Source of the DNA: Kineococcus radiotolerans SRS30216 = ATCC BAA-149
GTDB taxonomy: Bacteria; Actinomycetota; Actinomycetes; Actinomycetales; Kineococcaceae
Direction of reading: 5' to 3'
Assembly: GCF_000017305.1 (NCBI RefSeq)
Contig: NC_009664.2
Coordinates: 2,670,001 to 2,702,000, forward strand
Length of the DNA: 32,000 nucleotides
The translations under genes were made by a program, and so were the position numbers. Under the pieces are notes generated by a model, which was not told where the DNA came from, searched no databases, and was given only the letters and a program-made list of their open reading frames with translations. Of this stretch, positions 6,195 to 11,746 are shown in pieces; position 1 is the first letter of the stretch; each line of letters begins with the position of its first letter.

Positions 6195-6932
6195 TCAGCC
6201 CAGCAGGTCCGCGATCTCCGCCCAGGACGACACCACGACGACGACCCCGGCCTCCCGCAGCGCCTCGCGGCGGGCGTCGCGCTCGGCCTCGGCGACGAAC
6301 TGCACCGTCCCGATCGTGGGGAACCCGGCGGCGACCGCGGACAGGGCGCCGTTGAGGGAGTCCTCGACCGCCACGGCCTCGTCGGGGGTGACCCCGAGCT
6401 CCTTCCCGGCGAACGCGTAGACCGCCGGGTCCGGCTTGCTCGTGGGCACGTCGAGGGAGTCCTCGGCGCTGAAGCGGCGGGCGGGGTCGAACAGCTCCGC
6501 GAGGTCGGTCACGTCCAGGCAGGCCCCCAGGCGCGAGGTCGCGCTGGAGGTCACCGCCGCCAGCGAGAACCGCCGGGACAGCGCCACCAGGGGGTCGCGG
6601 ACGGCGGGGTCCGGGCGCAGGACCGTGCGCAGGTGCGCGGTCACGACGTCCTTCTCCTCCTCGACCCAGGCGTCCAGGTCCGCGGCGCCCAGGTCGCGGC
6701 CGTAGCCGCGGGCCAGCTCCTGCGCCGCGGCCCGGAAGTTCTTCCCGTTGGTCATGCCCTGCAGCTCCTGGGGGCTGAAGGGCCGTTCGGCCCCCAGCTC
6801 GGCCAGGAACCGGTTCGTGACGTCCGCGGACGCCGCGTAGGCCGGTTCCTCCGAGGGGAACATCGTGCCGTCGGCGTCGCAGAGCAGGGTCGTGATCCGC
6901 GCGGGTTCCAGCGGGACGGGGCGGGTGCTCAC
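6195..6932 (-). CDS. HAD-superfamily hydrolase (beta-phosphoglucomutase-like sugar-phosphate phosphatase subfamily).
   Basis: HAD motifs: I LLCDADGTM, II AAVTSS, III SKPDP, IV VEDSLNG. GTG at 6932 overlaps the upstream stop (GTGA). Confidence 0.85.
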   Translation of the reverse strand: MSTRPVPLEPARITTLLCDADGTMFPSEEPAYAASADVTNRFLAELGAERPFSPQELQGMTNGKNFRAAAQELARGYGRDLGAADLDAWVEEEKDVVTAHLRTVLRPDPAVRDPLVALSRRFSLAAVTSSATSRLGACLDVTDLAELFDPARRFSAEDSLDVPTSKPDPAVYAFAGKELGVTPDEAVAVEDSLNGALSAVAAGFPTIGTVQFVAEAERDARREALREAGVVVVVSSWAEIADLLG

Positions 6933-8491
6933 CGGGCGGCCCCCGCGGTCGCGACGTCCGCGCGGTCGGTCACGTCCAGCTCCACGTCCAGGTCCCTCTC
7001 GACGTTCAGTCCCAGGTACAACGCGATGACCTCCCGCGGTCCTTGTTCCTCCAGCGCCCGCAGCGCCACCTCGACCCCGGCCACGAACCCCGCGTCGTCG
7101 CCCAGGCCGCCGAACACGCTGCGCTCGGTGAGCAGCGCCTCCGGCTCCGTCAGCCCCTCGCGGGCCAGCTCGACCAGCCGCTCGGACAGCGGCCCCGAGA
7201 CCGGCACGTCGTTCCCGGCGTAGTCGTAGCCCCGCAGGAACCTCATCCAACCGGCCACCGCGAGCAGCAGCAACTGGTGGGGGCGGCCGGCCTCGATCGC
7301 GGCCGACACCGAGGGGAAGACGTAGTCGGGCATCTTGGTGGACCCGCGCCGGCCCAGCCGGCCGAGCTGGTCGCCCATCTTGGGGTTGGAGAAGCGCCGG
7401 ACCAGGCTGCGCCGGTAGTCCTCGAGGTCCACCCCGGGCACCGGGGGCAGCAGCGGCGCGATCTCGTCGTCCATGAGGTGTTCCAGGTAGGCGCGGAACG
7501 TGTCGTCGGCCAGGACCTCGTCGATGGTCGAGAACCCGGCCAGGATGCCCAGGTAGGCCAGTGCGCAGTGGCTGGCGTTGAGCATCCGGGTCTTCATGGC
7601 CTTGTAGGGGGCCACGTCCTCGACGAACTGCACGCCGACCCGGTCCAGCGGGGGCCGGCCGTTGCAGAAGGAGTCCTCGACGATCCACTGGGTGAAGGGC
7701 TCGGTGATCACCGGCCACCGGTCGTCGACCCCGGTCGCCGCGGCGATCGCGTCGCGCTCCTCCGGGGTGGTCGTCGGGGTGATCCGGTCGACCATGCTGC
7801 CCGGGAACGCGACCTCGGCCTCGATCCAGTCCGCCAGCTCCGGGTCGCGCAGCCGGGCGAAGGACGCGACCGCGGTGCGGGCGGCCGCGCCGTTGTCGGG
7901 CACGTTGTCGCAGGACAGGACCGTGAACGGCACCAGACCCGCCCGCCGTCGCCGGTTCAGGGCCTCGGCCAGGAACCCGAACACGGTCCGCGGCGCCGCC
8001 GGGTCCGCCAGGTCGGCGCGCACGTCGTCGTCGTCGGCGTCGAACTCCCCGGTGTGGGGGTCGATGCGGTACCCCGTGCCCGTGATGGTCAGGGTGACCA
8101 GCCGGGTCTCCTCGTCGGCCAGCGTCCGCAGCACCTCCTCCGGGTCGTCGGGGGCGAACAGGTAGCGGTCGACGACGCCGACGACGCGGGCCCGGTCGGC
8201 GTCGTCCCCGCGCTCGACCAGCAGGTACAGGCGGTCCTGGTCGGCCATGACCTGCCCCATCTCGGGGCTGCGCAGACCGACCCCGACCAGACCCCAGCCG
8301 GTCTCACCGGTGCGGGCCAGGTCGTCGAGGTACACGGCCTGGTGGGCGCGGTGGAAACCCCCGACCCCGATGTGGACGATCGCGGGCCGCAGGGCGGACC
8401 GGTCGTAGCCGGGGACGGCGACGTCGGCGGGCAGGTCGCCGAGGTTCTCCTCGCGCAGGGCGACGGGGCGCGGAGGGGTGGGCGCGCTCAC
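6929..8491 (-). CDS. Long-chain mannitol 2-dehydrogenase family polyol/aldonate oxidoreductase. Motifs intact.
   Basis: IVHIGVGGFHRAHQAVY, FTVLSCDNVPDNG, SMVDRITP and KTRMLNASH (K-x4-N-x2-H) are all present. GTG at 8491 overlaps the upstream stop (GTGA). The ORF-track extension to 9361 is an off-frame read of the upstream gene. Confidence 0.9.
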   Translation of the reverse strand: MSAPTPPRPVALREENLGDLPADVAVPGYDRSALRPAIVHIGVGGFHRAHQAVYLDDLARTGETGWGLVGVGLRSPEMGQVMADQDRLYLLVERGDDADRARVVGVVDRYLFAPDDPEEVLRTLADEETRLVTLTITGTGYRIDPHTGEFDADDDDVRADLADPAAPRTVFGFLAEALNRRRRAGLVPFTVLSCDNVPDNGAAARTAVASFARLRDPELADWIEAEVAFPGSMVDRITPTTTPEERDAIAAATGVDDRWPVITEPFTQWIVEDSFCNGRPPLDRVGVQFVEDVAPYKAMKTRMLNASHCALAYLGILAGFSTIDEVLADDTFRAYLEHLMDDEIAPLLPPVPGVDLEDYRRSLVRRFSNPKMGDQLGRLGRRGSTKMPDYVFPSVSAAIEAGRPHQLLLLAVAGWMRFLRGYDYAGNDVPVSGPLSERLVELAREGLTEPEALLTERSVFGGLGDDAGFVAGVEVALRALEEQGPREVIALYLGLNVERDLDVELDVTDRADVATAGAAR

Positions 8492-9468
8492 CGGGCCCAC
8501 CGCGCGCGCAGGGCCAGCAGGGCCTCGCCCGGGCGGGGGAGGCGCGCGGAGAGGGTGGTGAACAGGTCGCGACGGATCAGGTGGCCGGCGTGCTCGCCGT
8601 GCACCTGCCCGGGGCCGGGGGTGGGAGTGCTCACGATGTCCGTTCCGTTGTCGGGTCGGCGACTGGTCTGCATGCGGCGGCCGACGAGGCTGAGGACCAC
8701 GTCGGTGAGTCCGGGGTTGAACTTCTCCCCGAGGATGAAACCCAGCGAGGCCCCGCCCACGACGGCCTGGCGCCGGGGGTGGGTGGCCATCCGGACGACG
8801 ACGTCGGCCACCAGCTCGGGGGCGTAGGGCGGCGGCGGGGGCTTGGTCAGGTGGCTGGTGCGGTTGCGGGAGTTCTCCCAGAACGGGGTCCCGATCCCGG
8901 CCGGCAGGATCGTGCTGACCGCGACCGGGGAGCCGGCGTGGGCCAGTTCCACCCGCAGGGCGTCGTAGAAGGAGCGGGCGGCGAACTTCGACGCCGTGTA
9001 GGGGGCGTGGAAGGGCAGCGAGCGGACCCCCTCGACGGAGGCCATGCCGACCAGGACACCACCGCCGGAACGTTCCAGCGCGGGCACGGCCACCTTCGCC
9101 GCGGCCACGTGCCCGAGGTAGTTCACCTCCGCGACGCGGCGGAACTCCTCCAGCGGGATGTCGTCGACGGTCCCGTAGACGCTGACCCCGGCCATCGTGA
9201 CCCAGGTGTCGACGCGGCCGTGGGCGCTCTCCGCGGCCGCGACCAGCGCCTGCAGGTCCTGGACGCGGGTGATGTCGGCCCGGAACGCCTGCGCCCGGCC
9301 CCCGGCGGCGGTGATCTCCTCGACGAGGGTCCGCAGCGCCTGCTCCCCGCGGGAGGCGCACACGACCGTCGCGCCCCGGCGGGCGAACTCCAGGGCGGTG
9401 GCGCGGCCGATGCCGCTGGAGGCGCCGAGGACGACGACCACCTGCTCCGCGACGTCTCGCCTGGTCAC
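8488..9468 (-). CDS. Short-chain dehydrogenase/reductase (classical SDR) with an extra C-terminal region of about 75 aa.
   Basis: VVLGASSGIGRA (TGxxxGxG-like), NYLG, and S...YTASK catalytic residues. GTG at 9468 overlaps the upstream stop (GTGA). Confidence 0.85.
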   Translation of the reverse strand: MTRRDVAEQVVVVLGASSGIGRATALEFARRGATVVCASRGEQALRTLVEEITAAGGRAQAFRADITRVQDLQALVAAAESAHGRVDTWVTMAGVSVYGTVDDIPLEEFRRVAEVNYLGHVAAAKVAVPALERSGGGVLVGMASVEGVRSLPFHAPYTASKFAARSFYDALRVELAHAGSPVAVSTILPAGIGTPFWENSRNRTSHLTKPPPPPYAPELVADVVVRMATHPRRQAVVGGASLGFILGEKFNPGLTDVVLSLVGRRMQTSRRPDNGTDIVSTPTPGPGQVHGEHAGHLIRRDLFTTLSARLPRPGEALLALRARWAR

Positions 9469-10763
9469 GGGGTCTCCTCCGGTGCGTCGGTGGGGCGGGG
9501 GTCGAAGGTGCCGGCGGCGAGCAGCACGAGCGCCTCCTGCAGTTCGGCGGTCAGGTGCGGGTCGTCGGCGAGGGTCCCGAGCAGCGCGTGGTGCTGCCGC
9601 AGCATCGTCCTCGCGTCGCCGCCGCTGCCCGGCAGCGTCAGGAGCCAGACGGCGACCGCGAGGACGAGGTGGCGCCGGGGGCGGTAGTGGTCCAGCGCCT
9701 GGCGCAGGGAGGGCAGCACCACGGCCGACACCGCCGCGGACCCGCTGCGCGGCAGCGGCTCGTCCGCCCCGGCGAGGCGGGCGAGGACCGCGGCCCGGTA
9801 CCCGGGGAGGTCGACGCCGGGGACGTGCAGCAGCGACGACGCCGCCTCCTCCAGGAAGCCGCCGAGGAAGGCCCGCACCCGCGGGTCGGCCAGGGCCTCG
9901 GCGGTGGTCCGGGCCCCCGCGGTCCCCCCGACCAGGCCCAGCGCGCAGCGGGCCCCGTCGAGCAGGTGCATCCGCAACTGCTCGTGGGGCGCGGTGTGCG
10001 TCACCAGGTGAGCGCCGGCCTCCTCCAGCGGGGGACGGCCGTGGCCGAAGTCGTCCTCGACGACCCAGCGGAACGGCAGGGCGGACCCGCCCGGCAGCGT
10101 CGGGTCGACCAGGCTGCCGGGGAACCGGACGTCGCGCCCGATCCAGTCCGCGAGCAGGGGGTCCGTCCGCCGGGCCAGTTCGAGGACGGCGTCGCGGGTG
10201 CGGGCCCCGTTGCGCGGCACGGGGTCGCAGGAGAGCACCGTGAAGGGGGGAAGGCCCGCGTCCCGCCGGCGGGCCAGGGCCCGCACCAGGTAGCCGTGGG
10301 CGATCCGGGCGGCGGGGTGCTCGGGTGCCGCGCAGAGGCCGAAGAACTCCTGCTCCTCGGAGACCCGCAGCGTGACCAGCCTCGTGGCGGGGTCGGCCAG
10401 GACGTCGAGGACGGCGGCGGAGTCGTCGGCGGAGGTCGTGAACTCGGTGAGCACCTCGACCTCGCGGAACTCCGGGGAGGACGTCCCGGGCAGCTGCACG
10501 CGGTGGTCGCGCTCGCGGTCCAGGCGGATCAGCCCGTCCTCGCCCGGGGGGCGCAGCTCCACGTGCACCAGCCCCCAGTCGTCGCTGAGGCGCCGTCGCA
10601 CGACCTCGTGCAGGCAGACCGCGTGGTGCGCCAGCCGCAGGCCGCCCACCCCGAGGTGGACGACCGCGGGGGTGCGCAGCCCCCGGTCGCCGGCGACGGC
10701 GGGCTCCGGGGTCTCGGTGGGGGTGGATCGGAGGGGGGTCTCGTCGGACCAGGTGGTGCTCAT
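9465..10763 (-). CDS. Divergent mannitol-dehydrogenase-family paralogue with all recognisable catalytic and cofactor motif residues substituted. Predicted non-canonical or pseudoenzyme.
   Basis: Homologous blocks against 6929..8491: VVHLGVGGLRLAHHAV, PFTVLSCDPVPRNG, FPGSLVDPTLP, RMHLLDGARCALGLVG. Intact ORF with strong GC3. ATG at 10763; alternative GTG at 10781. Confidence 0.8.
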   Translation of the reverse strand: MSTTWSDETPLRSTPTETPEPAVAGDRGLRTPAVVHLGVGGLRLAHHAVCLHEVVRRRLSDDWGLVHVELRPPGEDGLIRLDRERDHRVQLPGTSSPEFREVEVLTEFTTSADDSAAVLDVLADPATRLVTLRVSEEQEFFGLCAAPEHPAARIAHGYLVRALARRRDAGLPPFTVLSCDPVPRNGARTRDAVLELARRTDPLLADWIGRDVRFPGSLVDPTLPGGSALPFRWVVEDDFGHGRPPLEEAGAHLVTHTAPHEQLRMHLLDGARCALGLVGGTAGARTTAEALADPRVRAFLGGFLEEAASSLLHVPGVDLPGYRAAVLARLAGADEPLPRSGSAAVSAVVLPSLRQALDHYRPRRHLVLAVAVWLLTLPGSGGDARTMLRQHHALLGTLADDPHLTAELQEALVLLAAGTFDPRPTDAPEETP

Positions 10764-10871
10764 GGGGTGCCTGACTGCCACCGGGGCATCGGGAGAGCGA
10801 CGTCGTGGGACGGGGTCTCCGGGGGGCGGCCGCCAGTTCGACCGGCTGCGCGGGGACCACCCGCGCAGGAC

Positions 10872-10891
10872 CCAGCCGGTTCCCCGGCTGG
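10872..10891 (-). terminator. GC-rich hairpin CCAGCCGG-TTCC-CCGGCTGG between the AraC gene and the polyol operon.
   Basis: Perfect 8-bp stem with a 4-nt loop, 67 nt downstream of the AraC stop on the minus strand. No U-tract. Confidence 0.3.
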
Positions 10892-10957
10892 CGGTTCCAG
10901 TCCACCACCGGAGCCGGGACCCGGCAACCCGGCGCCCGGCGCCGCCTCGGCGCCGCC

Positions 10958-11746
10958 TCAGCGCCCGGCGAACCGGCCCGGGGTCGTCCCCAGCACGCGG
11001 CGGAAGTGCCGGTTCAGGTGGGACTGGTCGTGGAAGCCGGCGAGGACCGCGGCCTCGGCCGGACGGTGACCGGCGAGCAGCAGCCGGCGGGCCAGGTCGA
11101 CCCGCCGGGTCGTGAGGTAGGCGTGCGGCGGCATCCCGACCTCCCGGGTGAACGTGCGCACCAGGTGCGCGCCGGTGACGCCGAGCTCGTCCGCCGCGCG
11201 CGCCAGCGCCAGGCCCTCGACCACGTGCGCGTCCAGCAGCGACCGCAGCCGACGCGCCAGCGGCTGGTCGCGCGCCGGCGCCGCGGGCGCGCGGGAGAGG
11301 TGGGCGCCGACGGCGTCGACCAGGACGGCGGCCCGCGACTGCACCTCCAGCGGCTCGCGCCCGTCCAGCAGACCCGCGTGCAGCTGCCGCACCGCCGCGG
11401 CCAGCCGCGGGTCGGGCAGTTCCGGGGCGTCGGCGGCCCGCCCGGCCAGGGCCGGGGGCAGCGCGTCGCCCTCCAGGTAGAGGACCCGCTTGCGGAACCC
11501 CGCGCTCGTCGCGGCGCGCCCGTCGTGGGGGACGTGCGGGGGCAGCACCGTCACCAGCGAGCCGGTGCCGTGCGCGCGGTGGCCCAGGTCGTAGCGGACC
11601 GCGCCCGCGTCCACCAGCAGGACCGTCCAGGTGTCGTGGACGTGCAGGGGGTAGGCGTGCGCCACGAACCGCGCGTGCAGGACCTCGGCGATCCCGGGCA
11701 CGTCCGGGCGCCAGCTGCGGACGAGGTCACCACCGGCTGCTCCCAC
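10958..11746 (-). CDS. AraC-family transcriptional regulator (N-terminal cupin-like sensor plus C-terminal dual HTH).
   Basis: C-terminus LARAADELGVTGAHLVRTFTREVGMPPHAYLTTRRVDLARRLL...AGFHDQSHLNRHFRRVLGTTPGRF is a classic AraC HTH. N-terminal HAYPLHVHDTW cupin motif. Start is GTG at 11746, with TTG at 11761 as the alternative. The track start at 11944 is in a low-quality region. Confidence 0.85.
   Translation of the reverse strand: MGAAGGDLVRSWRPDVPGIAEVLHARFVAHAYPLHVHDTWTVLLVDAGAVRYDLGHRAHGTGSLVTVLPPHVPHDGRAATSAGFRKRVLYLEGDALPPALAGRAADAPELPDPRLAAAVRQLHAGLLDGREPLEVQSRAAVLVDAVGAHLSRAPAAPARDQPLARRLRSLLDAHVVEGLALARAADELGVTGAHLVRTFTREVGMPPHAYLTTRRVDLARRLLLAGHRPAEAAVLAGFHDQSHLNRHFRRVLGTTPGRFAGR

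Follow-up and report, generated by a model that had tools for sequence, protein, structure and literature searches.

The question raised by the locus described here is why a polyol operon opens with a gene whose product has lost its catalytic residues. The window (the whole stretch of 32,000 nucleotides that was analysed) is part of the Kineococcus radiotolerans SRS30216 chromosome. The open reading frame (ORF) at 9465..10763 on the minus strand encodes a paralogue of the mannitol dehydrogenase (MDH) family, referred to below as the dead MDH. An intact enzyme of the same family, the operon MDH, is encoded two genes downstream. We found that weak purifying selection has preserved the dead MDH gene from a time before the sampled Kineococcus species split. 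There is about an even chance that its product folds and, without catalysing anything, serves as an accessory protein co-produced with the operon enzymes. The gene and its former motifs are as follows; the ORF has the position and length given in the initial annotation of the window.

9465..10763, minus strand: dead MDH, a PSLDR / mannitol-dehydrogenase-family paralogue of 432 aa (ABS05666.1 = WP_012086041.1 = UniProt A6WFS7)
10626..10658, minus strand: loop HLGVGGLRLAH, residues 36-46, formerly dinucleotide-binding; the window copy retains the GVGG glycines
10206..10244, minus strand: FTVLSCDPVPRNG, residues 174-186; the equivalent of the oxyanion-hole residue Asn191 is Pro
10092..10115, minus strand: SLVDPTLP, residues 217-224; Asp retained, Arg replaced by Pro, with a deletion of about 21 aa directly after
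9948..9974, minus strand: RMHLLDGAR, residues 264-272, a degenerate KxxxxNxxH (Lys to Arg, Asn to Asp, His to Arg)
9726..9752, minus strand: PRSGSAAVS, residues 338-346, in place of the canonical substrate-binding RRGSTK

The dead MDH belongs to the PSLDR family of long-chain polyol dehydrogenases. Its homology to the enzyme two genes downstream, proposed in the initial annotation, was confirmed (38% identity over 450 columns in BLASTP, E=3e-69). Both Pfam domains scored above their cut-offs (PF01232, 67.5 bits against a cut-off of 27; PF08125, 42.4 bits against 30.7), although much more weakly than in the operon MDH at 6929..8491 (168 and 177 bits). In a HMMER comparison with PDB chains, 1lj8_A was matched with E=3.5e-42. 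This chain is Pseudomonas fluorescens mannitol 2-dehydrogenase (PfM2DH, PDB 1LJ8), and PfM2DH numbering is used for catalytic residues throughout. An AlphaFold2 model from the full alignment (pLDDT 86.6, pTM 0.86) had 4im7, 7rk4, 5itg and 1lj8 as its best Foldseek matches, with TM values of 0.69-0.76. A model from eight sequences of the degenerate clade alone had the same topology (pLDDT 70.9), residues 77-101 and 138-146 being poorly defined. The models agree that the two-domain fold is probably retained by the dead MDH.

In this family, Lys295 serves as the catalytic base and the oxyanion hole is made by Asn191 and Asn300 (PMC3307286); the PSLDR catalytic signature is KxxxxNxxH (PMC4022671). 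In the dead MDH, Lys295 is replaced by Arg, Asn191 by Pro, Asn300 by Asp and His303 by Arg, that is, SCDN has become SCDP, VDRITP has become VDPTLP and KTRMLNASH has become RMHLLDGAR. The KxxxxNxxH signature is thus absent, its columns reading R, D/H and R/Q/F in the clade. Asn191 and the substrate-binding Arg/Lys are missing as well (SCDP, VDP, PRSGSAA); the loss of the Arg373/Lys381 region, where RRGSTK has become PRSGSAA, had been absent from the initial list. In the dinucleotide loop, HIGVGGFHRAH has become HLGVGGLRLAH (F to L, H to R and R to L). The claim that every motif residue had been replaced was overstated: the catalytic Lys, Asn, Asn and His are lost, but the GVGG glycines and the Asp of the VD motif are kept. 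The losses are far beyond chance, because in a MAFFT alignment the Lys, Asn, Asn and His columns were 100% conserved in 93 canonical relatives. Among 134 near-invariant canonical columns, 42 were lost and 54 kept in the dead clade. The reported shortening of about 90 aa was also found; the protein is 88 aa shorter than the operon MDH, and about 60 of these residues are accounted for by three internal deletions (~15, 21 and 24 aa). Alignment with 1LJ8 and the 93 relatives placed the substitutions where they had been described, and no alternative KxxxxNxxH was found anywhere in the protein. With high confidence, judging from the sequence, the dead MDH is not a working polyol dehydrogenase and would be unable to oxidise or reduce polyols, as had been proposed. 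It should be filed as a putative PSLDR-derived pseudoenzyme, not as a mannitol dehydrogenase.

Loss of catalysis raises the question of whether the gene is selected at all. The uninterrupted ORF and the near-saturated G/C at third codon positions had been taken as signs of selection. Both are real (GC at third positions, GC3, 0.977; GC at the three codon positions 0.81/0.53/0.98, with periodicity fully retained). At 77% GC, however, an open frame with high GC3 is weak evidence of selection, because for every gene here two non-coding frames out of five, +2 and -0, are almost free of stops (0-3). Followed upstream, the frame of the SDR gene runs without a stop through the whole dead MDH, 806 codons in all (window 8488-10908, minus strand), and spurious ORFs of 800 aa were listed. 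ORF length is therefore unreliable as coding evidence in this genome.

Purifying selection was detected by comparison of orthologues. Nei-Gojobori (NG86) ratios of non-synonymous to synonymous substitution rates (dN/dS, omega) for four phylogenetically independent pairs were 0.61, 0.48, 0.55 and 0.72, each with a bootstrap confidence interval below 1. The ratio was 0.59 in the folded part versus 0.8-0.9 in the disordered N- and C-terminal tails. About 17 indel events were identified within the clade, all of them in-frame. Neither stops nor frameshifts were found in nine orthologous loci of the dead MDH. About 60 single-base changes per gene would make a stop, and about 20 hits are expected per unit of neutral divergence (Jukes-Cantor); none of the lineages carries one. 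More than continuity of the frame is under selection: the amino-acid sequence and the fold are too, since clade-invariant positions are enriched at canonically conserved columns (odds ratio 2.8, p=2e-5). The dead MDH is, with high confidence, not a freely decaying pseudogene; dN/dS confidence intervals below 1, indels that all keep the frame and the choice of positions conserved all bear out the earlier suggestion. The statement that the gene looks selected holds in so far as dN/dS is below 1, but the selection is weak (0.5-0.7), the ratio being the highest of ten neighbourhood genes.

Relatives of the dead MDH were sought by a word-indexed search of 5.8 billion proteins and by an exhaustive hidden Markov model (HMM) search of 1.84 billion cluster representatives. 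In both, the degenerate form was confined to Kineococcus. The members are K. radiotolerans, the species GCM10028916, SYSU DK001, DK002 and DK003, K. aurantiacus and four metagenome sequences. A gap in score separates them from canonical enzymes (553 bits for the weakest full-length member, 435 bits for the best canonical enzyme). The dead clade is monophyletic on a long branch, and the canonical proteins closest to it are P0015, P0013 and P0009, of which P0013 and P0015 are MDHs of other Kineococcus species; on this basis a recent tandem duplication of the operon MDH was rejected as the origin of the gene. Every member carries Arg in place of Lys295, and Asn191, Asn300 and His303 are gone from all of them. 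Catalytic death is old and predates the deletions, because in the earliest-branching member (P0006, 489 aa) the catalytic residues have already gone, with two of the three insertions still present, and its gene already lies directly upstream of the SDR gene. Metagenome contigs were scanned for unannotated or frameshifted orthologues with patterns specific to the window sequence, and only canonical relatives (30-37% identity) were recovered; ascertainment of orthologues via predicted proteins is a caveat here.

A second, stand-alone degenerate copy was identified in K. aurantiacus (GCA_013409345.1; P0311, L044:8001-9158). It is an intact ORF of 385 aa, is 42-45% identical to the dead clade and is derived from it. 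The glycine loop and the beta-hairpin region are missing, and the GC content at the three codon positions is 0.86/0.61/0.96. Instead of polyol genes, stress-type genes (Mn catalase, OsmC, DUF4383, TetR) flank it, and nothing is coupled downstream. No orthologues of this copy were found in other species.

The three central proteins of the window are exact matches to ABS05666.1, ABS05667.1 and ABS05668.1, and the neighbouring features are the following.

10958..11746, minus strand: AraC-family regulator (cupin plus helix-turn-helix), about 190 bp upstream of the dead MDH
10764..10957, minus strand: intergenic region between the AraC and dead MDH genes, ~190 bp, conserved in length, with two GC-rich hairpins and conserved boxes
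9465..9480, minus strand: dead MDH/SDR junction, with a GGAGGAG Shine-Dalgarno sequence at 9474-9480 and a GTGA overlap at 9465-9468
8488..9468, minus strand: SDR, a classical oxidoreductase of 326 aa, PRK07109-type with a C-terminal extension; TGxxxGIG and YxxxK intact
6929..8491, minus strand: operon MDH, an intact long-chain mannitol-2-dehydrogenase-family enzyme of 520 aa with every catalytic residue present
6195..6932, minus strand: HAD-IA sugar-phosphatase-like hydrolase of 245 aa, its start overlapping the MDH stop (GTGA)

The dead MDH gene starts with the ATG at 10763 and stops with the TGA at 9465-9467. An alternative GTG upstream (10781) would give 438 aa; the ATG is supported because every orthologue starts with M-S/T-T. 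GTGA stop/start overlaps join the four cistrons for the dead MDH, SDR, MDH and HAD proteins. The dead MDH gene is the first of them and so heads the operon, and its TGA overlaps the GTG of the next gene, both as initially described. The GGAGGAG sequence preceding the SDR gene sits within the last codons of the dead MDH.

This arrangement is shared by the orthologous loci. The order AraC, ~190 bp, dead MDH, SDR, MDH, HAD does not vary among the loci that have enough flanking sequence, and synteny and 4-bp overlaps are kept in six genomes and three metagenome contigs. The overlap between the dead MDH and SDR genes is conserved in L001, L002, L003, L008, L009 and L012, and the AraC regulator occupies the same position in all full loci. 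In all sufficiently flanked loci the degenerate copy co-occurs with the SDR, MDH and HAD genes, a pattern that the initial annotation proposed to check, but SDR homologues also exist without it. In K. vitellinus the SDR homologue (L014) lies downstream of a CobW-type GTPase gene, and a search upstream of it for a decayed dead MDH remnant, using six-frame profile HMMs and permissive tblastn, returned noise only. The SDR homologue of Kineococcus sp. SYSU DK019 (L015:6604-7389) is 75% identical, has a lower GC3 of 0.91 and is missing its first ~65 residues, including TGxxxGIG. It is probably a decaying copy and adjoins no MDH gene. A gene for a STAS-domain protein (anti-sigma-factor-antagonist-like) was observed between the DUF1684 and DUF2000 genes in SYSU DK001, DK002 and DK003 (L002:6202-6537, L008:6186-6539, L009:6180-6533); it is absent from that position in K. 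radiotolerans and GCM10028916.

The MDH and HAD genes also occur by themselves. Overlapping MDH and HAD genes without a dead MDH or SDR gene were found at L006:3828-6213 and L007:97-2482, and P0151 (799 aa, from a Logan assembly) is a natural fusion of an intact MDH and a HAD domain, the HAD part of which closely resembles the HAD of the window (LLCDADGNLFPSEEPAF). This suggests that MDH-HAD is the conserved functional core of the cluster. The pair possibly converts a sugar phosphate, by way of fructose, into mannitol. On this subject the genome paper of K. radiotolerans states only that the organism respires mannitol and sorbitol.

The region upstream of the dead MDH gene has features of its own. 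Two adjacent GC-rich hairpins were identified at window positions 10872-10891 and 10846-10868 on the minus strand, CCAGCCGG-GGAA-CCGGCTGG and CTGCGCGGG-TGGTC-CCCGCGCAG. The orthologous loci have equivalent palindromes with some compensatory changes, and the boxes GGGTTGCC, GGTCGAAC and GGCAGTCAGGCACCCC are conserved shortly before the ATG of the dead MDH. Scans of this intergenic region revealed neither a sigma-70-like promoter nor a terminator nor an Rfam match above chance, and the hairpins are not followed by a T-tract. They could be a factor-binding site or a terminator without a T-tract.

In the proposed accessory role, the dead MDH would keep the two-domain PSLDR fold while lacking the catalytic machinery. 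It would be translated as the first cistron, its stop overlapping the SDR start and its last codons carrying the SDR Shine-Dalgarno sequence. It may serve the SDR, the MDH or the AraC regulator as a partner, as a scaffold or as a subunit that binds a ligand. The demands on its sequence would be low, and the protein would have been trimmed by in-frame deletions. A number of observations weigh against such a role. The dead MDH is the least constrained of ten neighbourhood genes compared over the same species pairs (dN 0.35-0.44 vs 0.04-0.19; omega 0.48-0.77 vs 0.12-0.45), and the constraint is uniform across both domains, with no domain or patch standing out. Six high-conservation columns have become fixed specifically in the clade (G69E, V257T, K264R, P312L, L326V, F330L), a number that does not exceed the expectation from retained ancestral changes, and the clade shares no new catalytic or ligand site or motif. 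At the former active site the residues vary between orthologues (Asn191 to P/A/E, Asn300 to D/H/G, His303 to R/F/Q), and the glycine loop has been destroyed in four orthologues, that is, in half (GTHG, GLHG, GAHG, RPSG). Lengths within the clade are 489, 445, 444, 432, 427, 421, 407 and 368 aa. In the copy of SYSU DK001 (L009:8001-9107), a 62-aa in-frame deletion runs through the Rossmann sheet and removes helix A and several strands (window residues ~47-109); the glycine loop reads RPSG, and the remaining ORF and the SDR overlap are intact. A branch-specific test of whether this deletion had relaxed what remains of the N-domain gave non-synonymous/synonymous counts of 21/16 vs 8/14, suggestive in direction but too small in number. 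K. vitellinus, Kineococcus sp. DK019 and Paractinoplanes each have an SDR homologue (54-75% identity) unaccompanied by a dead MDH. The SDR gene of another K. radiotolerans assembly (L010:9296-10275, GCA_014191015.1) is frameshifted by a 1-bp deletion near 9641 (GTGAAC to GTG-AC, codon ~116) and is called as a 206-aa fragment, while the dead MDH there is intact. The same deletion is present in L011:9261-10240 (Logan assembly, SRR10145199), and both assemblies are possibly derived from the same reads. PSLDR enzymes are typically monomers, which would lower the prior for a heteromer with the MDH.

The main rival, less likely but to be taken seriously, is that the gene is instead a translated relic, an explanation that the initial annotation did not consider. 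The protein would then be functionless, its frame held open by translational coupling or by Rho-dependent polarity on the SDR, MDH and HAD genes; foldability would be kept only against toxic misfolding, and the gene would slowly shrink as in-frame deletions are tolerated. The highest dN/dS of ten neighbouring genes, the uniform relaxation over both domains, the drift of the glycine loop and the former active-site residues in different directions, and the in-frame decrease in length from 489 to 368 aa, including the DK001 deletion, are all consistent with this explanation. So are the conserved 4-bp overlaps and the embedded SDR Shine-Dalgarno sequence, the restriction of the clade to one genus, and the apparent MDH-HAD core, seen as overlapping genes in L006 and L007, where the dead gene is missing, and as the P0151 fusion. 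Just 10-25% of the length, however, has been removed over genus-level divergence (dS ~0.6-0.7), and free-living bacteria normally shed functionless DNA much faster. The fold-core positions are preferentially conserved and omega is lower in the folded part than in the tails. The SDR gene has its own strong Shine-Dalgarno sequence, and its frameshift in L010 and L011 would be equally polar on MDH and HAD; the stand-alone copy of K. aurantiacus is intact with nothing coupled to it. The accessory role is favoured because so little length has been lost, because fold-core residues are preferentially kept, because the stand-alone copy has remained intact with no coupled gene downstream, and because inactive dehydrogenase paralogues are known as subunits, for example BbsC in BbsCD. 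A more specific form of it, in which the dead MDH is a ligand- or partner-binding subunit controlling the SDR, the MDH-HAD module or the AraC regulator and is one of a recurrent undescribed class, given that PSLDR paralogues without the signature arose separately in Kineococcus, Spirosoma and an uncultured lineage, is rather doubtful.

The alternatives that remain to be weighed concern chemistry and expression. An enzyme with a different chemistry, as the initial annotation allowed, would have a remodelled pocket (Arg264, Asp269, Arg272, Glu69), for example for an anionic sugar, with or without NAD. The invariance of Arg at the Lys295 position, the fixation of Thr257 and Glu69, the retention of the Asp of the VD motif and of CD in the CDN loop, and the occurrence of SCDD at the Asn191 position in two independent lineages (Spirosoma and P0181) would fit such a pocket. 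Even so, the former active site has no conserved polar constellation (positions 181, 221, 269 and 272 vary), the three deletions take out segments beside the active-site cleft, and dN/dS is far higher than in any nearby enzyme. The NAD glycine loop has been destroyed in four orthologues and in the stand-alone copy of K. aurantiacus. The lack of conservation of this loop and the absence of 62 Rossmann residues from one orthologue argue both against a new chemistry and against an NAD-binding role shared by the clade. We are highly confident on sequence grounds that NAD binding would not be a conserved property of the dead clade, and consider a new enzyme very unlikely. A plain unexpressed pseudogene, open by chance in GC-rich DNA, is highly improbable. 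The nearly stop-free frames +2 and -0 and the large deletion in one orthologue would be in keeping with it, but confidence intervals exclude a dN/dS of 1 in four independent pairs, all of the ~17 indels are in-frame, and codon-position GC periodicity, the fold-core positions, the start region and the SDR overlap are conserved. The chance of an ordinary active polyol dehydrogenase with its catalytic residues elsewhere in the protein is very small; family membership alone points that way, and the BLASTP, HMMER-against-PDB and MAFFT alignments, three independent alignments that agree on the substitutions, speak against it, together with the lack of another KxxxxNxxH.

If the dead MDH has a non-catalytic role, the long-chain polyol dehydrogenases would gain in it their first described pseudoenzyme, and it would offer an entry to the control of a mannitol-type module (MDH plus HAD phosphatase) in the desiccation- and radiation-tolerant genus Kineococcus. 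If the gene is a relic, it would be a clear case of operon architecture (overlaps and polarity) holding a dead gene open across a genus while in-frame deletions whittle it down. Either way, the database names "mannitol dehydrogenase" and "mannitol-1-phosphate/altronate dehydrogenase" are misleading for metabolic reconstruction. The initial annotation knew of no described role for such a paralogue, and none turned up in the literature searched, in which no paper joined "mannitol 2-dehydrogenase" with "pseudoenzyme" or named the dead MDH accessions.

The PSLDRs available for comparison include P. fluorescens mannitol 2-dehydrogenase (1LJ8/1M2W), the Escherichia coli fructuronate reductase YdfI (4IM7), Aspergillus fumigatus M2DH (7RK4) and Gluconobacter oxydans sorbitol dehydrogenase (5ITG). 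Like them, the dead MDH has both Pfam domains and a predicted two-domain fold (TM 0.69-0.76), and it shares the motifs ALxRRRxxGxPPFTVLSCD, FPxS, WxVEDxFxxGRPPL and LPSLRQA. Unlike them, it is without KxxxxNxxH, Asn191, the Arg of VDR and RRGSTK, has three internal deletions, is ~60-90 aa shorter and has evolved three to four times faster at non-synonymous sites. Two further PSLDRs without the signature, both intact ORFs, were found among the best 150 representatives of the exhaustive HMM search. One is from Spirosoma oryzicola (CP089538.1, L045:8001-9386; SCDD, LQQRFQNASY) and stands alone between SusC/SusD loci; the other is the metagenomic P0181 (487 aa; SCDD, TKLYLVDATR). As these cases are independent, signature-less PSLDR paralogues have arisen more than once.

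The dead MDH resembles bacterial unitary pseudogenes in its catalytic loss, elevated substitution rate and lineage-specific deletions. It differs from them in being free of frameshifts and stops in nine lineages, in an omega below 1, in its codon periodicity and in its persistence across species. NmrA and HisZ are dehydrogenase-fold or enzyme-derived regulators or regulatory subunits that have lost catalysis and have defined partners and conserved binding surfaces. The dead MDH is likewise an enzyme scaffold without catalysis, and an AraC regulator is always adjacent; no conserved clade-specific surface or motif was detected in it. BbsC, taken here as the model for a possible partner role without catalysis, is in the account cited the inactive subunit of the heterotetrameric alcohol dehydrogenase BbsCD (von Horsten et al., 2021, cited in PMC10818641). 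As described there, BbsC and BbsD are adjacent SDR paralogues that form a demonstrated heteromer. The dead MDH differs from BbsC in having the PSLDR fold and a non-homologous SDR as its neighbour, and its active paralogue is two genes off and is not its closest relative. Within the compass of that account, the likeness is that each is an inactive dehydrogenase paralogue sharing an operon with an active one.

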